Assembly: GCA_000004985.1 (NCBI GenBank)
Contig: GG738846.1
DNA length: 64,000 nt
Source: Naegleria gruberi
Lineage: Eukaryota
Direction: 5' to 3' (one strand)
The notes beneath the pieces are model-generated. The model did no database searches, was not told the origin of the DNA, and worked only from the letters and a program-made list of their open reading frames with translations. The position numbers were made by a program, and so were the translations under genes. Below are positions 3,038 to 64,000 of this stretch, one piece after another; position 1 is the stretch's first letter, and each line of letters opens with the position of its first letter.

Positions 3038-5161
3038 TTACATTTCTTCAAATTCCTCATTTCTTAGTGGTGTCTTTTTACTTCTTGGTGAAGTTGTAAT
3101 GAAATTGTTATTCGATGAGGAGAGGTAAGGTCTGATTAGTTCCTCAATTTTTTCATCATCTTCATCTTCATCGTAGTTTTCCTCCTCCACTTGGTGATAT
3201 CTTTGATAATGGTGGTTCATATTTGAAATATTTACATGGTGAGAATCTTGGTCATCACTGTCAAGCTCAACATCACTTCCAAGATCTTCAGGTTCTGCTT
3301 GCTTTTCCTCAAATAAAAGACTGTCTTGAAGTTGCGAATTCTCGACACCTTCTTGATAGTATTGCAGGGATTCCTCCATTTCATGGTCTCTTCTTGAGCT
3401 TGACATTTGTTTTTGTCTGTAAAAATCCACAGTATCTTTCAGATTTTGATTGTCAATCTTCAAAGAGTTCAAACATTCCAATAAGATTTCATTTTCTTTG
3501 GCAATGCTATTGTTCACTTCTTCTACATTAGTTAATTGTTTGATTTTCTCCTTTAGTAAATCATTCTCTCCTTCAACAAAACTAAGCTTGCCTTGAATTT
3601 CTGCAACCTTCTTGAAAATCACTTCCTCACGTTCTTCACTCTCTGATTCTTTTGATTTCTTGTTTGCAATCTCATTCTTAATGGTAAATCCAAGCTGCTC
3701 ACATTCTGCTTCCTTCTTTCTAAGAGCTTCAGAGAATCGGTCAATAACTGATTGTTTTTCTGCTAGATCCCTGCCAAGTCTTTCTATTTGGTATTGTTTT
3801 TCACGATCTTGTTTCTCTGCTTCCCTTCTGGAGAGATTGATTTCCTCTTGTTTTTTGAAAATTTCCTTTTCCACTTCAGTTTCGAGTATCGCCTTTTCAT
3901 TTTCGAGTTGAGTAATCTTCTTTTCCATGCCAAGAATTTGTTGAGAGGATGCCTGAGCTTTTTGAGTTTCTTTTTGTACTGTTTTTTCTGCCTTTTGTAA
4001 ATCCTTTGTAAGTTTTTCAATCCTAGATTCCATCTTTTGTTGGCTTTGTAGTAATTCAACCTTTAATCTCTGCTCAACTATTAAAAGGTCCTCCTTTTCC
4101 TTACTGAGATGATTGACACTTTGTTGAATCAAGACATTTTGAGTTTTTTGTTCAGATAGGGTTTCTTGGAGAGAGTCAATTTTTGATTTGTAGAATTTTT
4201 CTCTTTGAGTTGAATTTTGTAATTGAGTTTGAATAGCAAGGTTCTTTTGTTGCAAATCATCAAATTGAGCGATGGTTTCCTCAAGAGCTGCAATTTGTTT
4301 TTTAAAATGGGTAAGTATTTGATCGTGTCTATTCTTTTCTTTTTCAATATGTCGTGCAAGCTTTCCTACCTTTTCGTCGTGTCTCTCTTGCATTTCACGA
4401 AGTACATCTTGGTGTTGTTCAATAATTCTTTGGGTATTTTTCTTTTCATCCTGTAATTGATCTTGAATATTAGCCATAGCCATTTTTACTTCATGAATCT
4501 CATTGAGATATTCCTCACATTGATTCTTCTTTTGGCCCAACTCTTTGTTGATATCTATGATTGATTGTGTCTTTTCCTTGTTAGATTTTTCCAAATCCTT
4601 ATTCATTGATTCCAATACTCCTTTACTTTCAATAAGATTCTTCTCTCTATGTTCACTCAAATCTAGTTGGGATTGAACTTCCTCTAGTTGATGCTGAAGA
4701 TTTCTAATTTCCTCAAGAAGTTCTCTTTCTTTCACTCTCCTTCTTTCGCATTCTTGATCCAATTCATTTCTACTCACTCTTAACTTGTGCTCCAAATCTC
4801 TCACTTGGTCATTAGAATACTGAAGCTTGACAGCATAATTTCCAACATTATCTTGGAGTTGGGATATCTTTACAGACATTCTTTGATTACTTTCTCTTAT
4901 TAACTTGGCTTCATCTTCCTCATAAGTATTTGAATACCAATTGTTTTTGTCCATCACACCAGATTTTTGATTCACATCGGAATATCCAAAGTGTGGAGAT
5001 CTTCCTTTCATTGGTGGAGAAAGATTGGAGAGTGAAGAATTCATGGTGAAACTAGCTGATGAAGGAGAGGCCTGAATATTATTAACCATGGATTTCAAGT
5101 TGTTAATCCTCTCATTAAGCTCCCTCGCTGTATTTGCCGTTGAATGGTTGCTTGTGTTCAT
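3038..5161 (-). CDS. Long coiled-coil protein (707 aa, E/K/Q/L-rich heptad repeats, acidic C-terminus).
   Basis: A single uninterrupted 2.1 kb ORF with an A-rich leader before the ATG at 5161. Composition is typical of myosin-tail or golgin-like coiled coils. There is no enzymatic motif. The nested ORFs 3223..3531, 3612..3911, 3784..4059 and others are frame artefacts of low-complexity sequence. Confidence 0.7.
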   Translation of the reverse strand: MNTSNHSTANTARELNERINNLKSMVNNIQASPSSASFTMNSSLSNLSPPMKGRSPHFGYSDVNQKSGVMDKNNWYSNTYEEDEAKLIRESNQRMSVKISQLQDNVGNYAVKLQYSNDQVRDLEHKLRVSRNELDQECERRRVKERELLEEIRNLQHQLEEVQSQLDLSEHREKNLIESKGVLESMNKDLEKSNKEKTQSIIDINKELGQKKNQCEEYLNEIHEVKMAMANIQDQLQDEKKNTQRIIEQHQDVLREMQERHDEKVGKLARHIEKEKNRHDQILTHFKKQIAALEETIAQFDDLQQKNLAIQTQLQNSTQREKFYKSKIDSLQETLSEQKTQNVLIQQSVNHLSKEKEDLLIVEQRLKVELLQSQQKMESRIEKLTKDLQKAEKTVQKETQKAQASSQQILGMEKKITQLENEKAILETEVEKEIFKKQEEINLSRREAEKQDREKQYQIERLGRDLAEKQSVIDRFSEALRKKEAECEQLGFTIKNEIANKKSKESESEEREEVIFKKVAEIQGKLSFVEGENDLLKEKIKQLTNVEEVNNSIAKENEILLECLNSLKIDNQNLKDTVDFYRQKQMSSSRRDHEMEESLQYYQEGVENSQLQDSLLFEEKQAEPEDLGSDVELDSDDQDSHHVNISNMNHHYQRYHQVEEENYDEDEDDEKIEELIRPYLSSSNNNFITTSPRSKKTPLRNEEFEEM

Positions 5162-51865: not shown

Positions 51866-53839
51866 ATGAAACCAACAACAGAAGCATCATCTTTTCGAAA
51901 CAATAGAAATCGTTCCTCAACTCTTCCTATGAGGTTGTCAAAGAATATGGCTATTGAAAATATCAATCAGTCAATAAAACAATCATTTAGAAATTCAAAA
52001 ACCACAGTTGACCTAAATGAAAGTCAAGGAAGTATGATTATAAAAGATAGAATTTCTTTCTCTAGAAGTAGGCGTTCAAGCACAGCATCAGGTTCAAAAC
52101 AGCCAACATCACTCTACAAGAGACTCTTATCCAACCTCAAACATGGTGATGATTCCATGTCAGACATTATAAGTGAAACATCATATGACACTTCCATGTC
52201 GGGTTTAGTAACGTCATCTATGGGAATAGGTTTCAGATTAAATGGAGCCAACAACACTCCCACACACAAACAAGAAATATCCGAATTGAATAATTTAGTT
52301 TCTCAATTCATGTGTTGTGGCTTTCCAATTGTGGTTTTTGACAAGAAGGGTTGTATTGTCTATATGAATAGAGAATCAGAGGAAATGTTTGGAACATTTA
52401 GTTTTTCAGTATTGGGTGAAGATTTAGTTGAGGTTTTTATGGAGGACACAATTCTCGATATTCACACGTTAATTGATGATTTTTTAGGATTTTCAATGGA
52501 AGATATTGAAGGAGTTGACAGGAAGAATATCAGTCTCAAGAATATGCCTTATGAATTATTGAGCGAGGAAGATAAATCAAAGAGAAGAAGTCACCTTTCA
52601 AAAGAGAGAATTTTGAAAGGAAAATCAATAACTTTGAATCAATTCTTTACCATCTCAACAAAACTTGTTCCAATTAAGAAGAAACATGAAATTCACTTTT
52701 GTGCCTATATGAAATTTGTTGAATTTATTGATAATGAAGAGTTGAACACAATATATGAGAATTTAGATTCCGTTCATGTACAAATTACAAATGCAAGTAT
52801 TGTTCCAATTGTGGCGATTAATGATAAGGGAAGTGTTTTGGTATTCAATAAGGCTGCCACACTGACATTTGGATATGAAAATAGTGAAATAATTGGAAGA
52901 AATGTCAAAATTATTTGTAATAGAAAAGATAGAATGAATCATGACATGTATTTGGAGAGATTTGCCAAAACTGAAAAGAAGAAAATTCTAGATCGTATTA
53001 AGAAAGTCAAAGGTCAAACAAAAGATGGTAAAAGTATTCCAGTGGAAATCAAAATTTCTCAAATTGTCAAAAATGGTCAATCATTATTTGTTGCCTATTT
53101 CAGAGATTACAAATTATTATCCAATCAAGATGAACAAATGACAGGTATTGCAGAAAAGATTTATCCAAGAAATATTGCAGAAAGATTAAGTATGGGCCAG
53201 AAAATCATTGACCAAGTTGATGGATGTTCCATGTTATATTGTGATTTGGTTGGTTTTACAGAGTTATCATCAACCATGCCACCTAAACAAGTTGTTTCTC
53301 TACTACACTCAATATTTTCAAATTTTGATGAAATTTGTCAAAAGTTCAAGATGGAAAAGATTAAAACAATAGGAGATAGTTACTTTTTAGCTTCTGGTTT
53401 AAGGAATGAAACTAGTTCAGTTGACCATATGATTAAGGGTGGTCTTTTAATGATTACAACAGTGAATCAATTTTCAGAATCGACAGGAAATAGTTTACAA
53501 GTTAGAGTTGGAATTCACACCTCAATAGGAGGTGATGTCATTGCAGCTGTAGTTGGTAAAGTGAAGAGAACGTACGATCTCTTTGGGTCTGATGTTAAAA
53601 TTGCTCAACTAATGGAAATGACTGGAATTACTAATGAATTACACATCTCCAACAATACCTACAAATCCATCAAGAGTGAAAAGAGAAAATCACTCTTTAT
53701 TGAAAAATTCAAAGAGGGAGATGAAATTTTAATGGACAAGTATGCAGAACCATTGCAGATACCGACAAATAGTTGGGTAACACACAATGTGTTAGAATTA
53801 CTCAATAGAGATAAGGAAAAGTCAATTCAACAACAATAA
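51866..53839 (+). CDS. PAS-PAS sensor fused to a class III adenylate/guanylate cyclase domain (657 aa), apparently single exon.
   Basis: After an S/R-rich N-terminus come two PAS/PAC-like modules (VVFDKKGCIVYMNRESEEMFG, PIVAINDKGSVLVFNKAATLTFGYENSEIIGRNVKII...GKSIPVEIKISQI). The CYC domain reads SMLYCDLVGFTELSS...KIKTIGDSYFLASGL...VRVGIHTSIGGDVIAAVVG...YDLFGSDVKIAQLME. A-rich leader, host-like codon usage. Confidence 0.8.
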   Translation: MKPTTEASSFRNNRNRSSTLPMRLSKNMAIENINQSIKQSFRNSKTTVDLNESQGSMIIKDRISFSRSRRSSTASGSKQPTSLYKRLLSNLKHGDDSMSDIISETSYDTSMSGLVTSSMGIGFRLNGANNTPTHKQEISELNNLVSQFMCCGFPIVVFDKKGCIVYMNRESEEMFGTFSFSVLGEDLVEVFMEDTILDIHTLIDDFLGFSMEDIEGVDRKNISLKNMPYELLSEEDKSKRRSHLSKERILKGKSITLNQFFTISTKLVPIKKKHEIHFCAYMKFVEFIDNEELNTIYENLDSVHVQITNASIVPIVAINDKGSVLVFNKAATLTFGYENSEIIGRNVKIICNRKDRMNHDMYLERFAKTEKKKILDRIKKVKGQTKDGKSIPVEIKISQIVKNGQSLFVAYFRDYKLLSNQDEQMTGIAEKIYPRNIAERLSMGQKIIDQVDGCSMLYCDLVGFTELSSTMPPKQVVSLLHSIFSNFDEICQKFKMEKIKTIGDSYFLASGLRNETSSVDHMIKGGLLMITTVNQFSESTGNSLQVRVGIHTSIGGDVIAAVVGKVKRTYDLFGSDVKIAQLMEMTGITNELHISNNTYKSIKSEKRKSLFIEKFKEGDEILMDKYAEPLQIPTNSWVTHNVLELLNRDKEKSIQQQ

Positions 53840-54203
53840 ATCTTTGCACTATTCTCTCTTGTTGATGAAGAAATTTAAATGAAATTATGAAAAAAAATGA
53901 ATTATTTCAAATCTTTAAAATTCAGAAGAAAATTAAATCATCATTTCCAAAATAATAATATGAAAATGAATAGAAGAACATTTTCTACTGTTCGGAATTG
54001 TACTATTCAAGCATTATCAGCATCACCAATAACAGGTAAAATCTCTCCAAATTAATTGGAATGATTAATCCATTATTTACATTTTCAATATATTTAAAAT
54101 ATTATTATTATTATATATTATTAAATCATTGGATGAAAATAATATTAATTAATGATGATTTTCATCCGTATTAAATAATATTTAAATTGAATATTTAAAA
54201 AAA

Positions 54204-55064
54204 ATGGAACAAATCTACGCCAATACCAAAGACTCTCTATTTTGTATTAAACGTTTTCAAGAATTACTAAAAACAAGTTATATAGGACGATCGATCGTGT
54301 ATCGGAATCAAGTGGAAACAACAATGGACATTGGAAGGAGAGAGGCTGAGGAGGGTTGTTTGACTGGAACACTCATCTTGGCAGAGGAACAAACAAAAGG
54401 AAGAGGAAGGAGAGGTAGAGAATGGAGCAGTGCAGGGAAGGGAAAGAATTTGTATTTTACTATTGTATTTCATGTTAGATTGGATAATGCACAGGAATTG
54501 ATAAAACTTAATTTGGCAATTCCTTTGGCAATTACTATTACTTTGAGAGATGAAGGATTGGAAAATTGTGGAATTAAATGGCCAAATGATGTTTGGGTCA
54601 TTCCAAACGAAAAGGATTCACTTCCATCTAAAATTAGTGGAATGTTAATTGATAGTGTACAATCTGGAGAAACTTTATTTGCATTGGCAGGAATTGGAAT
54701 TAATCTCAATAGTTCATTCAAGAGTACATCACTTACCCAAGGTGAAAATGCTCTTCCAAATGTTGCTATTTCATTCCTTGATGCTACCAATAAGAGTGTA
54801 GATAGAGAAAAATTTCTTGCTCAATTGTGTAATACTTTGGAAAACTTATTGGCATTTTCACAAAAGGATGTAATTACTCTGTACAAATCACATGATATTC
54901 TTATTGGAAAGGATATTACCATATCACCATCAGATAAATCACCATCATATACTGCCAAAGCTGTTGGTATTTCCAAGTTTGGTAACTTGATGGTTGAAAT
55001 GAAAGATGGAACAGGTGTCAAGGAAATGATTGCTGAAGAAGTTTCCATTCGACCATTAGAATAA
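54204..55064 (+). CDS. Biotin--protein ligase, BirA type (compact 286 aa, no N-terminal extension).
   Basis: BPL/LPL catalytic-domain signatures are present: QTKGRGRRGREWSSAGKGKNLYFT, IKWPNDVWV and KISGMLID. The C-terminal SH3-like tail is present. It is far shorter than typical eukaryotic holocarboxylase synthetases. Confidence 0.8.
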   Translation: MEQIYANTKDSLFCIKRFQELLKTSYIGRSIVYRNQVETTMDIGRREAEEGCLTGTLILAEEQTKGRGRRGREWSSAGKGKNLYFTIVFHVRLDNAQELIKLNLAIPLAITITLRDEGLENCGIKWPNDVWVIPNEKDSLPSKISGMLIDSVQSGETLFALAGIGINLNSSFKSTSLTQGENALPNVAISFLDATNKSVDREKFLAQLCNTLENLLAFSQKDVITLYKSHDILIGKDITISPSDKSPSYTAKAVGISKFGNLMVEMKDGTGVKEMIAEEVSIRPLE

Positions 55065-55257: not shown

Positions 55258-56487
55258 ATGCAAATACTAAGAGATCAAGGAGCCTATATTGTTTCCTTTG
55301 TTAGAACACCAATCGGATCTAATGGAGGAAGCCTCTCATCACTCTCTGCCATAAAAATTGGTTCGGTTGCACTCAAGGAAGCCATTCAGAGATCCAATCT
55401 TTCATTAGGACAAGTTGAAGAGGTAATTATGGGATCTGTTTTACAGGCTGGTCTGGGCCAAAATCCTACTAGACAAGTTGCTCTCGGAGCTGGCTTATCA
55501 ACAGAGGTTATTTGTACAACTGTGAACAAAGTGTGTAGTTCTGGAATGAAATCAATTCACTATGGAGCTTTGGAAATAATGTGTGGACAACGTGATATTA
55601 TTGCATGTGGAGGTGTTGAATCAATGTCAAATACTCCTTATTATTTAAATGAATATAGAAATGGAAAGAGAATGGGAGATGGTAAAATAGTAGATGGAAT
55701 GATGTATGATGGTCTTTTTGATCCTTATCATTCAACCATGATGGGTAAATTTGCAGATGTCACTGCAACAACATATAACATCTCAAAACAAGAACAAGAT
55801 GATTACTCTGTGAAGAGTTATGAAAGAGCAATGAAAAATGCAGATAAATTCAAGAAGGAAATTGTTCCTGTAAAGGTGAATGCAAATTTAACATTGGACC
55901 ATGATGAGGAAGTTTCTAAATTCAGAGGTGCTGATAAATTAAAATCACTCAAACCAGCATTTTCTAAGGAAGGTGGATCTGTAACTGCTGGTAATGCCAG
56001 TAAAATTAGTGATGGAGCTGCCTTTGTAGTGTTGGTAAGTGGAAGATTCTTAAAATCGAATCCAACCTATTTGGCCTCCATTAGAAATCAAAGCATTTTC
56101 CAAGTATTATCATTTGAAGATGCTGAAAAGGAACCTAATTGGTTCACAATTGCTCCATCAGTTGCCATTCCAAAAGCCATTAAGAAGGCAGGTCTCTCAA
56201 TTGACCAAGTTGATAATTTTGAAATTAATGAAGCATTTGCAGCTGTTGCATTAGCCAATTCTAAAATTTTAAATCTTCCAGAAGAAAAGGTCAATATCTG
56301 GGGAGGTGCAGTTGCATTAGGGCATCCATTAGGTTGTTCAGGAGCTAGAATTGTTGTCACTCTCTGTAATCAATTATGTACAAACAATAAGACTATAGGT
56401 TGTGCTGGTATTTGTAATGGAGGTGGTGGTGCAAGTTCTCTAGTTCTTAAGAGAATTGATCCTTCTCATTTAAATTCCTCCCTTTAA
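55258..56487 (+). CDS. Acetyl-CoA C-acetyltransferase (acetoacetyl-CoA thiolase, thiolase II).
   Basis: 409 aa. Has the N-terminal RTPIGS...GGSL, the active-site Cys region VNKVCSSGMKSI, the C-terminal signatures NGGGGASSLVLKR and GHPLGCSGARIV. Confidence 0.9.
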   Translation: MQILRDQGAYIVSFVRTPIGSNGGSLSSLSAIKIGSVALKEAIQRSNLSLGQVEEVIMGSVLQAGLGQNPTRQVALGAGLSTEVICTTVNKVCSSGMKSIHYGALEIMCGQRDIIACGGVESMSNTPYYLNEYRNGKRMGDGKIVDGMMYDGLFDPYHSTMMGKFADVTATTYNISKQEQDDYSVKSYERAMKNADKFKKEIVPVKVNANLTLDHDEEVSKFRGADKLKSLKPAFSKEGGSVTAGNASKISDGAAFVVLVSGRFLKSNPTYLASIRNQSIFQVLSFEDAEKEPNWFTIAPSVAIPKAIKKAGLSIDQVDNFEINEAFAAVALANSKILNLPEEKVNIWGGAVALGHPLGCSGARIVVTLCNQLCTNNKTIGCAGICNGGGGASSLVLKRIDPSHLNSSL

Positions 56488-57081: not shown

Positions 57082-58311
57082 TTAATCAAAATAATTATTT
57101 AGTAGATTAACACCTGACGGATTGTCATTCATTTCGTCCAGCATATCAGTTGCAATACTACTCTGGTGCTGCTGGTTGGTACTTATCGTACTTGCCGTTG
57201 TAAAAGTTGCTGTAGAGGAATCCAGAGAATAATTCATTAAAGGTAGAGTGGCATTTGAGGCCACTTTGGAGAGGAGAGAAATAAAATCCTTCTTTTCTGC
57301 TTCTGGAATTTTTGACAATATCTTGTCAACATCCTGCTCACTAGCAATACTAGTCAACAAATCACGCAAATAGAGTGAAACACTTGTAAATTTGTTGGAA
57401 GTGATAAGATCCTTAACAGTTTCTCGAAGTAATGCTTCTTCAACTGGTTCTCCCACAGATTCTTCCTCATCATCGAAATTGGAATCACTGGCTTGCCTTT
57501 CCAGTTTTGCCTTTTTTCTTTCTTCCTCATAATAACTGGGATCTCTTCTCTTTTTTTCATTGTCCATCATTTTGTCAAAAACATGTGTTCCATTAAGTAT
57601 GTGTACAGTTGCCATCTTTTCACTTGTACTTGAAATATTTGTTTCCAAAATAATCAATCCAAGTGTGAAGGTCGTAATTAAGGAGGCAATCTTGACCTTT
57701 TTGTAAATGTCAAATTTGATAATATTTCTACTCTTTTTTCCTTTCATATTCTCAGTGGTGTAAATGTGAAGTTTAAATGGATCATGCAATTCAAAAATGT
57801 AAGCAAAAATCGATTGATGTGGCTCATCAACTCCATAATACAATTTAGATTGTAATTCCTCTGTAATTTTGTAACGAATAGTTTTTCTATGTTTCAATAT
57901 CTTGGTATCAAATGATTCCTGATCAACATCAGTCTCCATAGCAAACTTTGAATTCTTTGCATTTTCAATAATATTTTCCTCTCTCAATTTACCAGTCTCT
58001 ACAATTTCATTCTTTAGCCTTTCTCTCACAAGCTGATAAATCTTTTCAATATTAGCACTTGATGCATTGATCGGTTCAGGAAATGTATAACAATTAAAAA
58101 TCATATTAAAACCACATTCAACCTTCTTATTCCTAACAATCTTTTCCGAAGAGTTTGATGAAGACTTTTTCTTTCTTGATGACGACTCGGATGAACCAGA
58201 AACAGCAGCCATGGTAACAGAAGTAATACTATTGTTATTACTAGAGGCATTTGTTGCCAATAATTCTTCCGAACTTATCATTTTGTTGTTGTTGATGTGG
58301 TGTATTATCAA
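57082..58311 (-). CDS. Hypothetical protein (409 aa) with one predicted TM helix.
   Basis: A single ORF with an N/S-rich N-terminus. The hydrophobic segment is IASLITTFTLGLIILE. No recognised domain. Confidence 0.5.
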   Translation of the reverse strand: MIIHHINNNKMISSEELLATNASSNNNSITSVTMAAVSGSSESSSRKKKSSSNSSEKIVRNKKVECGFNMIFNCYTFPEPINASSANIEKIYQLVRERLKNEIVETGKLREENIIENAKNSKFAMETDVDQESFDTKILKHRKTIRYKITEELQSKLYYGVDEPHQSIFAYIFELHDPFKLHIYTTENMKGKKSRNIIKFDIYKKVKIASLITTFTLGLIILETNISSTSEKMATVHILNGTHVFDKMMDNEKKRRDPSYYEEERKKAKLERQASDSNFDDEEESVGEPVEEALLRETVKDLITSNKFTSVSLYLRDLLTSIASEQDVDKILSKIPEAEKKDFISLLSKVASNATLPLMNYSLDSSTATFTTASTISTNQQHQSSIATDMLDEMNDNPSGVNLLNNYFD

Positions 58312-58560: not shown

Positions 58561-59160
58561 ATGGCTCTCCAAGAACATCAAAATGAAACTAACGAAAAAT
58601 TGTTAAGGCAAGAAGAATGTTTAACCTCAAACTCTGATAGAAAAACTTGTCTTCTTGGAAAGAGAAAACAAGAAGAAGCCACGAATGGTACAACTTTTTC
58701 ATCTGAATCACAAGATATAGAGTTTGAAAGTGTTGCTGTTGATGAAGATGTGAAATTAGAAAATGTACAATTAAAACAATCACTTTTGTTACTCGTATTA
58801 GGAGCAGAACAGAGAGAGGAATGGCCTGAAAAGTGGCAAAATTTGGTATGGAAAGTTGTTAATCAGAATATTCTACAAGATTGTTCAAACTCTACAACCA
58901 ACGATTCACTGTTCAATGAGGAATTTACGAGAGAATTGGAGAGTTATTTCCCAATGGACACAAGTACAAACTCTTCCAATACTAATTGTGCTAAGGAGTG
59001 GGTTAGAAATAGAATTAAACCATGCCTTGCTTTCAATTCTCTCCTTGAACCAATCTCTAAAAAGATCAAAATTGCAACAACAAATGAAACTCCCACAACT
59101 ACAAATCCAGACCTAGTAGAAGACGACAATACTGCTGAAGAGGCTTCTCCAATTTTCTAA
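58561..59160 (+). CDS. Hypothetical acidic protein (199 aa).
   Basis: ORF with an A-rich leader (aaaaaaaatggct). No recognised domain. Confidence 0.45.
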   Translation: MALQEHQNETNEKLLRQEECLTSNSDRKTCLLGKRKQEEATNGTTFSSESQDIEFESVAVDEDVKLENVQLKQSLLLLVLGAEQREEWPEKWQNLVWKVVNQNILQDCSNSTTNDSLFNEEFTRELESYFPMDTSTNSSNTNCAKEWVRNRIKPCLAFNSLLEPISKKIKIATTNETPTTTNPDLVEDDNTAEEASPIF

Positions 59161-59225: not shown

Positions 59226-59964
59226 TTATTGAGAAGCTCTTAACTTGTTCAAAGCATCAGTAAACTTATTGCTGTGTGACTTTTCAGCCTTAGCAAGAGT
59301 TTCGAACCATTCAGAAATATCATCGAAACCTTCTTGTCTGGCAGTCTTAGCCATAGATGGATACATGGAAGTATATTCGTGAGTTTCACCAGCAATAGCA
59401 GAAATCAAGTTTGATTCAGTATCACCCATTGGTTCACCAGTGGCTGGGTCACCAGCTTCTTCCAAGAATTCTATTATTATTATTAGTACAAATTAAATAA
59501 TTATTTTAATTGTTATTATTAGAATATAATAATATAAAGTAAAATAATTTAATGTAAATTCTAGTGTAAAGATAATAATATTACTATTAACTACATACCC
59601 AAATGTCCAAAAGCGTGAGCAGTTTCACCATCAGCAGTAGATCTGAACAATTGGGAAATATCAGTGTGACCTTCAACATCAGCTCTATTTTAATACATTA
59701 TTAAACAATAATTATCATCACACAAGAACAAGAATATAATTAAAATCATCATCATCAGTACAATTGTCGTCATCCAAAAAAAACCTACCTATCGGCGAAG
59801 AAGAGATATCTTCTGTTAGCTTGGGATTCACCAGCAAAAGCTTCCTTCAAGTTATTGTGAGTCTTGGTACCCTTCAATTCACTGTACATTCTTGTGGAAG
59901 AAGCATTGGAAATGACGGTAGGCTTGAGGTTAGTGCTCTTTGATACTTTGGTGATGGATCTGAA
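59226..59964 (-). CDS. Rubrerythrin-like diiron (ferritin-like) protein lacking the rubredoxin domain, three exons, with a presequence-like N-terminus.
   Basis: Exon 1 is 59964..~59788 ([60 protein letters not shown]). An intron follows. Exon 2 is ~59681..59597 ([28 protein letters not shown]). Intron ~59471-59596 (GTATGTAGTTAAT...AATAATAG). Exon 3 is ~59470..59226 ([70 protein letters not shown]...*). It carries the rubrerythrin Fe-ligand blocks E..AGES, E..H and EY. There is no C-terminal CxxC...CxxC. Confidence 0.75.
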
Positions 59965-60153
59965 CATTTTTTTAAGTGACTGGTTTATTTTTAACGACCT
60001 AATTAATTCCGACCACCTATGGCGGAGTAAAGAAAGAATCACCTGTACAGGAGGTTGGTTCAATTCAATTCTTAATAACTGAATAGATATTTAGGATAAT
60101 GGGTGTTTGTTAAGTTAGAAATGGTGATGAAGTGCAAAAGAGTTTTATTGTAA

Positions 60154-60226
60154 GGGGATGTAGCTCACATGGTAGAGCGCTTCTTTAGCATGGAAGAGGT
60201 ACGGGGATCGATACCCCGCATCTCCA
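60154..60226 (+). tRNA. tRNA-Ala (anticodon AGC), 73 nt, no intron.
   Basis: GGGGATGTAGCTCACATGGTAGAGCGCTTCTTTAGCATGGAAGAGGTACGGGGATCGATACCCCGCATCTCCA folds as a cloverleaf. Acceptor GGGGATG/CATCTCC with G3:U70. D-arm GCTC/GAGC. Anticodon stem CTTCT/GGAAG with loop TTAGCAT. T-arm CGGGG/CCCCG with the internal B box GGATCGATACC. Discriminator A. Confidence 0.95.
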
Positions 60227-60328
60227 CACATTTTGCCTTTTGCTAGTTTTCTTATTAAGGCTAATAGAATATTATGACATGGATTAAAAGAAAGATGAAT
60301 AAACCTTCATTCTCTACTTGTTATTCAT

Positions 60329-61306
60329 TTAAAATTGAGCATCAACAAAATTTCTATGATATAGACTACTAAACCTATATTTTCTATTTTCAGTATAGAA
60401 TAATCTTTGATAATCTTGTGGTGTTAAAATATCCTTTTTTGATTTCAATCGTTCTTGATATTCCTCATTGACTTTTCTACTGTCCATGGTTGATATGGAG
60501 TTTTGATGGCGAATATTATTTTGAATTCTTTCGTTCAGACTCATTCTATTTTCAGTGTTGGCATTTACAATATAATTCTGAGTGAAGTATCTGTGTTCAT
60601 GATCAAAGTTTGAGGCAATTTTCAAATCATACAATAGGTCATTAGAAACTCTATTGGATTTTATCAAATCTGATATACTATCATACTTGATGGAATGTAA
60701 TTGCAAATAAAGATACCATAAATATTCCAAATCCACTGGTTTTCCCTTTCTAATCGAGAATATATGTAAATCAAGAGGATGTACCAATAAATCCTTATCA
60801 TTATTATTAACATTCAAATCAGTTGTCAAATCATCCCAATATTTCAAATATTCTTCATTGAAAAACATTCTCATATTTGATTCCTCTTGTGTCAAGTCAT
60901 ATTCTGTAGCATATGGATAAGGAGCTTCAAATCTATATATAAAACAAGTTTCCTTCTTGTGATACAATCTACTTTTAAATATATTTGTCATGTTAATTGC
61001 CGGAATATTGGTCCAATATTGTACTGTTTCATCAAATGAAGAGGAAGGTAAAAAGGAAAACCCAATAAATCCAATAGTTGAGACTGCAGAGATGAGCAAG
61101 GCTCTTGTTGTAAATTTCCTCTGATAAATAAATTTTGAGAGAAAATTCAACTTGACCTCCGTTTCAGGTTTTTGAAAGAAGGAATAAAATTGTGAAAATT
61201 TTGATAATTTAAATTTTGAATTATTTGCTCGTGATGATGATTGGTAATTTATCGGATTTGGAAGAATTTTCCTATCTGCTGATGATGTTTCTGGATCTTG
61301 TTTCAT
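60329..61306 (-). CDS. Hypothetical membrane protein (~325 aa), probable type II/signal-anchor topology.
   Basis: The likely start is MKQDPETSS at 61306. The track ORF extends further upstream via an in-frame non-AUG region. It has a single TM helix, ALLISAVSTIGFIGFSFL, then a Tyr/Asp-rich lumenal or extracellular domain. Confidence 0.5.
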   Translation of the reverse strand: MKQDPETSSADRKILPNPINYQSSSRANNSKFKLSKFSQFYSFFQKPETEVKLNFLSKFIYQRKFTTRALLISAVSTIGFIGFSFLPSSSFDETVQYWTNIPAINMTNIFKSRLYHKKETCFIYRFEAPYPYATEYDLTQEESNMRMFFNEEYLKYWDDLTTDLNVNNNDKDLLVHPLDLHIFSIRKGKPVDLEYLWYLYLQLHSIKYDSISDLIKSNRVSNDLLYDLKIASNFDHEHRYFTQNYIVNANTENRMSLNERIQNNIRHQNSISTMDSRKVNEEYQERLKSKKDILTPQDYQRLFYTENRKYRFSSLYHRNFVDAQF

Positions 61307-61397
61307 TTTTTTAATATAAATATTTAAATAATATCGATCTTGGAGTTTTAAAATAATATTAATCATATATTTATGAATAATTTTCAATTTAATTTCA

Positions 61398-64000
61398 TTA
61401 TGTTTTCTCATGATAACTCCACACATAATTCCACTTCTTCAAATTGGCCACTCTGTTTCCCAGTTTCATCATTCTTTTGTTGAACTTTCCAATGCGGCTT
61501 GTTCGTTCTTTTTTGGTTTCCTTCTCTGGAGTTCTGAATGACATCTTTACCATGTTGTGCTCTAATTCTATGTGGCGTTTAATTGGAGAAGATTGATCAT
61601 TAATGAACTCTTCTATTCTTCTAGTTGTGAGATTACCTTTAATTTCCTCAATTTTGGTTGGTTCTTGTTGTTGTCTTTGTTTAATCCATTTTACTATTTG
61701 ATTATCTAAAAATTGGTGAGGATCAAGAACCATTTCTCTCAAGTTTGAATATCCACATCTCACAATGGATGGAATGGTATTTGGTTTTACTGATGGATAC
61801 CAAATATGGATCTTGATGGTTGGGATTGTTTTCAATTGGTTCACTAAATTCTTAATTTCTTGATTACTTGTTGATTCATTCTTGTAGCTTTGAAAATATT
61901 TATCAATGTCTAATTGAGCCAATGACTTTTTCATTTCTTCTTGACCTACACATGTATCACTATATTTGATAGAGAATTCTACCATAACTATTGTGGAATA
62001 ATTGTTAAATTCTTGAAAGCTCAAAAAATCTTGATGAGCTGAATTTGGAAGTCTTATCAATCTGTTCAGGTAGAGTTTTTGCTCCTCTGTTATGATCATC
62101 TTGTTATCATTAACATTGGTACAAACTTCAACACATTTCCATAGATAGGAAAGCATGTCCTCGTCTACATTCTTAATCAAGCCAAATCGATTCAAAGATA
62201 GAGGCTTAAATTTAAGATCATGAGATTCTAATATGATTTGATCCATCTCTCCTGAATTTAACAACTTGAGTGCTTTCAAAGAATTTACACTTGTCAACCG
62301 CTTGTTGAACATTAAGTTCAAAACAACTAACCATTCAAATATACCACCAAAACTTGGCCCTCCAAATAATGTTGGATATCTGGTTATTCTTTTTTGTATT
62401 TCAGAGAAAAATAATGAACTATCTCTACAAAATTCAAAGAGGGTGTCGATTAATACTTGTTCATCTAAAAGACTAACTAAATAAGTACCATCTTCATTAC
62501 GCTCAATCTCACACATTCCAACTGGTATCCAACTTGGATCTATAGTACATATCTTGTTCTCTCCTTCTCCTCTTAATTGAATTGATAGGTGCCTAATAAT
62601 TAAATCACTCACTCCATCCCAAAATATCTGACTATAGATTGAAAGCTTTTGACGTAGGAATTGAGTTAGGTCATTACGAAAAGTATCTAATGTTACCAGA
62701 GCTGCTGATTTAACATTTTTACAACTAAATAAATTCTTAATGAAAGTAAAGAATATTCTTTTTCTACCCAGAAATTGATGAATTAAGTGAATGTCAGTAA
62801 GTTCTGAAATAACCTTCTTTGATTGATTGATCATGAATTTTAAAAGTGATTCAATATTGCCTCGATTAATGGAATCAAACTTGCTTGGCATCATTCTAAT
62901 ATTCACTCTCTTTCCCAATAATGACAAATATTGATCTACATAACGCTGATCAAAACTGGTGCCTGCTATGCCAACATATATCGGTTGAAGTTTAGTGACC
63001 TCTCTGACAATGAAATGTTGTAAATTTCTAAATTGATTACATTCATAATCAAAAATATCCAAAAGAGATTTGTTAGAAGTATTCAAAATCTCATCTAAAC
63101 CAAAACCAACATCTTTTCCATACTCATCCTTAATACTACCAATTAACATTCGGTTATAGTTTATGAAATAGGCCAAATCAGTTTCCCAAGGACTAAGCTC
63201 ACTCAAAATTTCAGCATAAATATAGCTGATACATTTCAAGTACCCATTTAATTGGTATTCTAGAAATTCGGTCGATGTCAAATACTTGTTGACCTTCAAG
63301 AGGGACCTTAAGTAAAGCAACCGTGCCAGTATAAATACTTGAATTTCATTGAACACAACAACATTTTTTGCTACATCTGTTCTCAAGCTTCTAATTCTCT
63401 TAGCTAAAAGGTTGTAACAAGGATCTATTATTTGGGTTAAATCAGGAGAACTAAAGTCAGAAAATAAATTAGATTCAGGAGCCAAAATCATGTAAATCAA
63501 AAAGTAGTCCTGGTGTACACTTCTTGACAACATTTTGAAGGTTTTTCCCTTCCCAGAAACACCCAAAAGCATCTCAACATTGACACTTTTGTCAAAGAGA
63601 GTCTCTTTTTTAATGTTGTTCAATAAATCGGGAGTTGTTAAATGTTTATACATGCCAAATAATTCAGGACGAATCGAACCTTGATAAATAGGCAAGCCAC
63701 ATTTTGAATTGTAATATCTACCCATTAATTTCTGTTGTTGGGCAGAATCCAAATAGGTTGGCTTTGTGATAGTGGAAACAACATTATCAGCAATTCTTTG
63801 CAATGTTGCTACAGAAACAAACCGATGGTTACGCTTAACTTTTTCTATAGCGTCCTTATAGAGGCTTGAGAAATCGGGTGAGTTTAATTGTCTTTCTTCT
63901 ACAAATTCAATTGTATTGTTGTAGATAAGTACACTCTCGGGAACACCTTTCTGGTTGAGGCTAGAATGATCCTTAATGAAGTCTTCATGAGGAGCAGAAA
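61398..64000 (-). CDS. Large P-loop NTPase-like protein (>860 aa), with its 5' end beyond the window.
   Basis: The track ORF starts at TTG 63803. The same frame stays open to position 64000 (...SVATLQRIADNVV...). Walker A reads LLGVSGKGKTFKMLS. About 90 aa downstream sits VVVFNEIQVFI, a DEIQ-like motif with N for D, and further down GFGLDEIL. A long, mostly helical C-terminal region follows. Stop at 61398. Confidence 0.55.
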   Translation of the reverse strand, partial: SAPHEDFIKDHSSLNQKGVPESVLIYNNTIEFVEERQLNSPDFSSLYKDAIEKVKRNHRFVSVATLQRIADNVVSTITKPTYLDSAQQQKLMGRYYNSKCGLPIYQGSIRPELFGMYKHLTTPDLLNNIKKETLFDKSVNVEMLLGVSGKGKTFKMLSRSVHQDYFLIYMILAPESNLFSDFSSPDLTQIIDPCYNLLAKRIRSLRTDVAKNVVVFNEIQVFILARLLYLRSLLKVNKYLTSTEFLEYQLNGYLKCISYIYAEILSELSPWETDLAYFINYNRMLIGSIKDEYGKDVGFGLDEILNTSNKSLLDIFDYECNQFRNLQHFIVREVTKLQPIYVGIAGTSFDQRYVDQYLSLLGKRVNIRMMPSKFDSINRGNIESLLKFMINQSKKVISELTDIHLIHQFLGRKRIFFTFIKNLFSCKNVKSAALVTLDTFRNDLTQFLRQKLSIYSQIFWDGVSDLIIRHLSIQLRGEGENKICTIDPSWIPVGMCEIERNEDGTYLVSLLDEQVLIDTLFEFCRDSSLFFSEIQKRITRYPTLFGGPSFGGIFEWLVVLNLMFNKRLTSVNSLKALKLLNSGEMDQIILESHDLKFKPLSLNRFGLIKNVDEDMLSYLWKCVEVCTNVNDNKMIITEEQKLYLNRLIRLPNSAHQDFLSFQEFNNYSTIVMVEFSIKYSDTCVGQEEMKKSLAQLDIDKYFQSYKNESTSNQEIKNLVNQLKTIPTIKIHIWYPSVKPNTIPSIVRCGYSNLREMVLDPHQFLDNQIVKWIKQRQQQEPTKIEEIKGNLTTRRIEEFINDQSSPIKRHIELEHNMVKMSFRTPEKETKKERTSRIGKFNKRMMKLGNRVANLKKWNYVWSYHEKT

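Follow-up and report, generated by a model that had tools for sequence, protein, structure and literature searches.

A spliced nuclear gene of Naegleria gruberi for a probable mitochondrial aerobic-type rubrerythrin: gene structure, metal site and relation to described systems

The aerobic-type lineage of rubrerythrins was defined by Cardenas et al. (2016, PMC5114695), and several prokaryotic proteins of this kind have been characterized. Ferriperoxin reduces hydroperoxides in an FNR/NADPH-dependent manner and is indispensable when cells grow aerobically, the fpx knockout being oxygen-sensitive; peroxidase and catalase activities have been reported for sulerythrin; and the rubrerythrin of Burkholderia pseudomallei (BpRbr) is a domain-swapped dimer. 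Among eukaryotes, a mitochondrial system composed of the rubrerythrin (RBR), DUF3501 and the oxidoreductase RFO was described by Gray et al. (2020, PMC7050145), who proposed that it descends, together with the two partner proteins, from the alphaproteobacterial ancestor of mitochondria, was present in the last eukaryotic common ancestor and was then lost multiple times; later papers repeat the mitochondrial-ancestor view. Here, we analyze the Naegleria gruberi gene for this protein, which occupies positions 59226..59967 on the minus strand of a stretch of 64,000 nucleotides from contig GG738846.1 (assembly GCA_000004985.1; the whole stretch is referred to below as the window). The literature already covers, under EFC50160.1 / XP_002682904.1, the gene and how it is classified, where its product is predicted and experimentally indicated to reside, and which partners it has. 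What is added here is detail of gene structure only, namely two introns common to the Naegleria genes, an additional one in N. fowleri and an uninterrupted gene in Willaertia. We place the probability that the locus is a nuclear gene for a mitochondrial aerobic-type rubrerythrin, working by the mechanism set out below, at roughly 0.85.

The gene runs from ATG to TAA in three exons and two introns, all on the minus strand, and encodes 169 amino acids. Exon 1 (59789..59967, 179 nt) holds the start codon (59967-59965), the coding part of the putative mitochondrial presequence and helix A with the ligand E47, and ends in phase 2 within codon R60. Intron 1 (59685..59788, 104 nt, GTAGGT...TAG, phase 2) is followed by exon 2 (59599..59684, 86 nt), which encodes helix B with the ligands E80 and H83, and intron 2 (59471..59598, 128 nt, GTATGT...TAG, phase 1) lies inside codon E89. 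Exon 3 (59226..59470, 245 nt) supplies the cross-over loop, helix C and helix D, which bear E117, E120, E151 and H154, and the TAA stop codon (59228-59226). The exons have a G+C content of 40-43% (41.9% for exon 1), compared with 24% for intron 1, 11.7% for intron 2 and 33% for the 64-kb window, and both the codon use and the base composition of the gene resemble those of the host. When the spliced coding sequence of 510 nt was assembled by script from the reverse complement, its translation proved, in a comparison with database proteins, 100% identical over the full length to N. gruberi EFC50160.1 / XP_002682904.1 / NAEGRDRAFT_77926, which is annotated as a 'predicted protein'. The three-exon model thus equals the public annotation, and the gene is an N. 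gruberi nuclear gene. An earlier note on this DNA, made from the sequence alone, had proposed the same spliced structure, which is upheld by this identity and by the introns shared with N. fowleri; the span that it gave, 59226-59964, was right except that one end fell 3 nt short and so omitted the start codon, and the N-terminal peptide that it quoted was exact, while a second peptide, TAREEGF, should read TARQEGF.

Orthologs occur in N. fowleri (82% identity), N. lovaniensis and Willaertia magna (76%), and a further eukaryote-like sequence from a JGI contig, P0017 (66%), also carries an N-terminal extension; the Naegleria pangenome paper lists one rubrerythrin per genome. The N. fowleri gene (4001-4937 of locus L001) has three introns, the first two of which interrupt the same codons in the same phase as those of N. 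gruberi (R60/R62, AG↓A; E89/E91, G↓AA), and the third, placed between M and Y in YTSM↓YPG, splits the homologue of exon 3 and is absent from N. gruberi; the first exons of the two genes are colinear. The W. magna gene (4001-4507 of locus L002) is uninterrupted. Because intron positions are conserved, because the alignment to bacterial proteins passes ungapped through the junctions and because peptides of the exact model have been detected, the splice model is backed by evidence that stands in for transcripts. As an observation in its own right, intron numbers of zero, two and three in W. magna, N. gruberi and N. fowleri, respectively, make a clean small case of introns being gained or lost by a gene whose ancestry is bacterial.

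Assignment to the rubrerythrin family is clear. In a Pfam scan of the 169-residue protein, Rubrerythrin (PF02915) matched at E=2.8e-27 with 96.2 bits against a gathering cut-off of 22.8, over residues 38-160 and profile positions 1-135 of 137, whereas Ferritin (PF00210) gave a weak match of 25.1 bits confined to residues 120-165, that is, to one helix pair, and neither COQ7 nor a DUF family matched at E<=1. With Rubrerythrin so far ahead, a ferritin, COQ7 or DUF identity was rejected, and the family named in the earlier note is confirmed. Among solved structures the best matches are those of BpRbr (4DI0, 8FUH and 9ONM; E~1e-62, ~72% identity), followed by sulerythrin (1J30; E=2e-53, ~60% identity). 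The alignments to the 4DI0-type structures and to 1J30 are ungapped over residues 29-164/167 and continuous across both splice junctions. The match to the Desulfovibrio vulgaris rubrerythrin is far weaker (E~3e-30), and the NCBIfam equivalog model for classical rubrerythrins, NF045767, is missed at 130.8 bits against a cut-off of 200, the match covering profile positions 2-146 of 194. A 26-sequence alignment shows no variation at E47, E80, H83, E117, E120, E151 or H154, which make up the pattern E...ExxH / E(xxE)...ExxH distributed over helices A-D; these seven metal-site residues equal, at numbers lower by 27, E20, E53, H56, E90, E93, E124 and H127 of BpRbr.

The absence of a rubredoxin module, which the earlier note had recognized, is real: there are no cysteines among the 169 residues, the NF045767 match breaks off at position 146 of 194, and the space 3' of the gene is too short for such a module. 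A hidden rubredoxin exon was rejected, given the lack of cysteines, the 65 bp between the stop codon and the neighbouring open reading frame (ORF), and the orthologs that end at the same place. With a mature length of ~141 amino acids in a single domain, the protein is nearer to sulerythrin and BpRbr than to classical rubrerythrins (E~1e-62 and 2e-53 vs 3e-30), and by these sequence comparisons it is a full-length, colinear member of the aerobic-type, rubredoxin-less lineage that includes sulerythrin, ferriperoxin and BpRbr. Two parts of the earlier description therefore do not hold. The protein had been called truncated, but it is colinear with, and equal in length to, the members of a whole lineage; and it had been considered an oddity in an aerobic amoeba, but because the aerobic-type lineage is typical of aerobes its presence in such an organism is not anomalous.

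An AlphaFold model of the monomer shows the expected long helices, with a predicted local distance difference test score (pLDDT) below 50 for residues 1-22, indicating a disordered N-terminus. Foldseek searches with this model returned BpRbr and sulerythrin first, with distant fold matches to ferritins and bacterioferritins. The modelled monomer is a closed four-helix bundle with a template modelling (TM) score of 0.70 to 1RYT, and a monomer prediction of this type cannot decide whether domains are swapped; against the domain-swapped chains 4DI0 and 1J30 the model gives TM scores of 0.46-0.55 and a root-mean-square deviation of ~13 A. It was also seen that the pLDDT dips at residues 82-86, just ahead of the cross-over loop. 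Fold searches with domain-swapped families call for caution more generally, since the closer relatives score lower here than 1RYT.

The N-terminus extends 28 residues beyond the start of the bacterial homologues and is encoded at 59884..59967. Five K/R and 11 S/T are found in the first 30 residues, the first acidic residue is E30, within the mature part, and the start of the extension is amphipathic (hydrophobic moment 0.73). The extension ends in R-M-Y↓S, an R-3 motif as known from sites of the mitochondrial processing peptidase, and bacterial homology begins at S29; cleavage probably follows R-M-Y. The junction is kept as RMY↓SELKG in N. fowleri and appears as RKY↓SELKG in W. magna, and the presequence character is retained across N. 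gruberi, N. fowleri, N. lovaniensis and W. magna. Published predictions for EFC50160.1 are TargetP 0.657, MitoProt 0.957 and Predotar 0.63 (Gray et al. 2020, PMC7050145). Experimental evidence for the location comes from the fractionation study of Horváthová et al. (2021), a proteome obtained in the manner of LOPIT (localization of organelle proteins by isotope tagging), in which XP_002682904.1 belongs to a 946-protein mitochondrial cluster of N. gruberi organelles. The protein was identified by 11 unique peptides at 39% coverage; its log2 label-free quantification values climb from 26.25 through 28.38 to 30.17 with rising mitochondrial enrichment; in abundance it follows the marker proteins, and 376 mitochondrial markers share its cluster; and its entry stands on the mitochondrial sheet, the peroxisomal sheet starting only after it (Horváthová et al. 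2021). The presequence-like N-terminus noticed earlier is accordingly supported by composition, by published predictions and by mitochondrial proteomics.

In bacteria, the genes of this lineage sit beside those of the two partner proteins. The closest bacterial homologue lies in an alphaproteobacterial metagenome-assembled genome (4407-7575 of locus L003), where the order is Fur-family regulator, RBR, the CCG-domain oxidoreductase RFO and DUF3501. We counted neighbours in the 54 loci with full 3-kb flanks out of 80 prokaryotic loci (L005-L084), and found DUF3501 beside the rubrerythrin gene in 50 and RFO in 49 of them, which reproduces the RBR-RFO-DUF3501 linkage of Cardenas et al. (2016, PMC5114695). 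A Fur-family regulator, which stands directly upstream of the cluster in the closest alphaproteobacterial locus, was also present within 3 kb in 29 of the 54, and this neighbour hints at iron- or peroxide-responsive control of the Fur/PerR type in bacteria. Both partners have counterparts in N. gruberi: in comparisons with the alphaproteobacterial operon, XP_002674685.1 was identified as the counterpart of DUF3501 at E=2e-32 and XP_002680212.1 as that of RFO at E=7e-26, and both stand on the same mitochondrial sheet as the rubrerythrin (Horváthová et al. 2021). Gray et al. (2020, PMC7050145) list the N. gruberi partners as EFC41941.1 (DUF3501) and EFC47468.1 (RFO), with mitochondrial targeting predicted. 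Neither gene is found in the 64-kb window by tblastn with alphaproteobacterial RFO and DUF3501 as queries (best E=6.5 and 8.9), and the partner genes are likewise unlinked in Andalucia (Gray et al. 2020, PMC7050145).

The gene structure, the family, the ligand set and the mitochondrial co-fractionation of all three proteins, documented here or in the literature, provide the frame for a mechanism that we otherwise propose by analogy with the bacterial relatives. Splicing would remove the two short, AT-rich introns from the pre-mRNA, and the 169-residue precursor, a product of cytosolic translation, would enter the mitochondrial matrix by means of its basic, hydroxyl-rich presequence of 28 residues. 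Processing, probably after R-M-Y, would leave a mature protein of ~141 residues whose N-terminus corresponds to the bacterial start. As in BpRbr and sulerythrin, two mature chains may pair, with domains swapped, into a homodimer that contains two four-helix bundles, each holding one dimetal, presumably diiron, site built from E47, E80, H83, E117, E151 and H154, with E120 predicted to cap the substrate pocket. At this site H2O2 or organic hydroperoxides would be reduced. Because the rubredoxin domain is absent, the electrons would have to be supplied by another protein, and RFO, a CCG-domain Fe-S oxidoreductase, and DUF3501 are the best candidates for donor or partner. For the cleavage site, the dimer, the peroxidase activity and the electron route, then, we infer rather than observe.

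Several considerations weigh against this reconstruction and should be set beside the alternatives. The cleavage site R-M-Y↓S is inferred, not mapped; organelle proteomics of the kind used by Horváthová et al. (2021) records co-fractionation and is not microscopy; and the closed bundle of the AlphaFold2 monomer is no evidence either for or against domain swapping. BpRbr is promiscuous in the metals it binds, and the metal and substrate that it uses physiologically have yet to be settled. For the eukaryotic system, Gray et al. (2020, PMC7050145) regard the function as still to be worked out, and the roles of RFO and DUF3501 are deduced from co-occurrence (Cardenas et al. 2016, PMC5114695). On the side of function, it might be argued that the protein mainly stores or buffers Fe or Mn in mitochondria, as a ferritin-like protein or metallochaperone, and is not a peroxidase. 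The weak Pfam Ferritin match and the distant fold matches to ferritins and bacterioferritins would fit such a role, as would the promiscuous binding of Fe, Mn and Co in the pre-formed site of BpRbr and the Fur-family regulator that adjoins the gene in 29 of the 54 full-flank bacterial loci. However, the Ferritin match, at 25.1 bits over residues 120-165, covers one helix pair and reflects shared superfamily ancestry, compared with 96 bits for Rubrerythrin; the close relatives are dimers and not 24-mer cages; peroxidase activity has been measured for ferriperoxin and reported for sulerythrin, and the fpx knockout is sensitive to oxygen; and the capping Glu is conserved along with the complete ligand set, so that a storage role appears unlikely. 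Still harder to sustain is the idea of a cytosolic or dually targeted protein, translated for instance from the internal Met27 (MYSELKG...), whose extension is not a working presequence. Met27 stands two residues ahead of the start of bacterial homology and is present in N. fowleri too, and the TargetP reliability is modest (0.657, class 4), but W. magna has K at the position of Met27, the character of the extension is conserved in four species, and the abundance of the protein climbs with mitochondrial enrichment as that of the markers does, the protein clustering with 376 of them.

Questions of origin bear on a different set of alternatives. The named best bacterial matches are overwhelmingly Alphaproteobacteria, especially Rhodospirillales. 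In a neighbour-joining tree of 84 sequences and 135 columns, whose prokaryotic sample was picked by similarity to the query and is biased to that extent, three heteroloboseans and P0017 are monophyletic in 190 of 200 bootstraps; this eukaryote-like clade falls beside or within the alphaproteobacterial cluster, the tree does not resolve its sister group, and it cannot separate endosymbiotic descent from later transfer. The earlier note had suggested a possible acquisition by horizontal gene transfer followed by the gain of introns, and a fairly recent transfer from bacteria into the Naegleria or heterolobosean lineage, with introns and targeting peptide gained afterwards, draws on the very high identity to alphaproteobacterial proteins (70-76%), on the signs that introns are being gained or lost (none in Willaertia and one more in N. 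fowleri than in N. gruberi) and on the clade attachment that 135 columns leave open. Against it stand the presequence-bearing orthologs in N. gruberi, N. fowleri, N. lovaniensis and W. magna, the monophyly of the four eukaryote-like sequences, and host-like codon use and G+C content. Published surveys, including that of Gray et al. (2020, PMC7050145), place the protein, usually with DUF3501, RFO and targeting to mitochondria as predicted from sequence, in numerous eukaryotic groups far removed from one another, among them jakobids, Tsukubamonas, malawimonads, hemimastigotes, CRuMs, amoebozoans, cryptists, glaucophytes and red algae, and the RFO and DUF3501 trees join eukaryotes with Alphaproteobacteria (Gray et al. 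2020, PMC7050145). A recent Naegleria-specific transfer is thus the weaker reading, and a rather improbable one, next to inheritance with the two partners from the mitochondrial ancestor, which is the published interpretation. That the gene is bacterial contamination or an artefact of gene modelling, as the high similarity of the mature part to bacterial proteins might at first suggest, is effectively refuted: two spliceosomal-type GT...AG introns interrupt the frame and are conserved in N. fowleri, the gene sits among eukaryotic genes in a window of 33% G+C, and the N. gruberi proteome of Horváthová et al. (2021) contains peptides of precisely this model.

Within the preferred reading of a mitochondrial rubrerythrin, the electron route invites a more tentative suggestion. 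Because RFO resembles CCG proteins of the GlpC/HdrD type, the eukaryotic RBR-RFO-DUF3501 trio might form, in place of a simple stand-alone peroxidase, a membrane- or quinone-linked mitochondrial module that passes respiratory-chain electrons to peroxide or O2, or that serves metal repair or delivery. We regard this as a speculative possibility. If true, it would mean that Naegleria has kept an ancestral, uncharacterized branch of mitochondrial redox metabolism which animals, fungi and plants have lost. Naegleria offers a culturable host in which the biochemical role of the rubrerythrin could be tested, a point already made in the literature for the same gene.

The surroundings of the gene in the window can be described briefly. 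A tRNA-Ala(AGC) gene, found by both ARAGORN and Rfam at 60154-60227 (+), lies 186 bp upstream of the rubrerythrin ATG in divergent orientation, so the adjacent tRNA-Ala mentioned in the earlier note is real; in neither N. fowleri nor W. magna does a tRNA lie less than 4 kb from the ortholog, and a functional link was rejected for this reason, the adjacency being incidental. On the other side, 65 bp separate the rubrerythrin stop codon from the end of a convergent ORF (58561..59160, +), whose product of 199 amino acids is acidic and rich in Ser, Thr and Asn. This ORF and three other long flanking ORFs, at 57082-58311 (-), 60329-61426 (-) and 61398-63803 (-), match no Pfam family at E<=0.001. 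Further away are an ORF for a PAS-domain adenylate/guanylate cyclase (51866-53839, +), a gene of the biotin/lipoate protein ligase family (54186-55058, +) and a thiolase ORF (55258-56487, +). In N. fowleri, too, the biotin/lipoate ligase neighbours the rubrerythrin gene on its downstream side; in N. gruberi the relative orientation is inverted and the distance is ~4 kb greater.

Among aerobic-type rubrerythrins from metagenome contigs of 0.7-1.4 kb, eleven clusters (P0002-P0010, P0012 and P0013) consist of proteins of 207-228 amino acids that amount to one and a half copies of the domain. In most of them helices A-B are repeated, with the join AIAGE↓SQANRRY at the internal repeat between helix A and helix C; P0002 and P0003 have a longer repeated segment and a later join, WFETLAKA↓DVEG, and throughout the two copies differ in sequence. 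These proteins are probably chimeric assemblies through the internal repeat; a real six-helix variant could also account for them. As candidate eukaryotic transcripts they were rejected, being bacterial-like and on very short contigs, and were set aside despite their top scores.

The Naegleria rubrerythrin can be compared with several described proteins. Symerythrin of Cyanophora paradoxa (3QHB) is likewise encoded by a eukaryote and belongs to the rubrerythrin/ferritin-like superfamily, but it matches over 62 residues only (E=4e-12), shows 22% identity in a fold alignment and represents a separate lineage. Classical rubrerythrin, such as that of D. vulgaris (1RYT/1B71), and the rubrerythrins of the anaerobic protists Entamoeba and Trichomonas share the four-helix-bundle diiron domain, with ~39-43% identity over aligned columns, but the classical forms carry a C-terminal Cys4 rubredoxin domain that the Naegleria protein lacks. 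Sulerythrin of Sulfolobus tokodaii (1J30) and ferriperoxin of Hydrogenobacter thermophilus resemble it more closely as proteins of aerobes built from a single ferritin-like domain, with peroxidase activity measured for ferriperoxin and reported for sulerythrin; they differ in being thermophile proteins, the one archaeal and the other from the Aquificae. Nearest among the solved structures is BpRbr (4DI0, 8FUH, 9ONM), with ~72% identity over residues 29-164 in an ungapped alignment, equal mature length, the same seven metal-site residues and no rubredoxin domain; yet the bacterial protein has no presequence, its gene has no introns and its partner genes are adjacent, whereas in Naegleria the protein comes from a spliced nuclear gene that lies apart from those of its partners, and it is organelle-targeted. 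Finally, the protein is the very one, EFC50160.1, that is listed as the N. gruberi member of the mitochondrial RBR-DUF3501-RFO system by Gray et al. (2020, PMC7050145), and to that account the present analysis adds the exon and intron coordinates, the finding that introns 1 and 2 are shared with N. fowleri and that Willaertia has none, and the mapping of the metal ligands.

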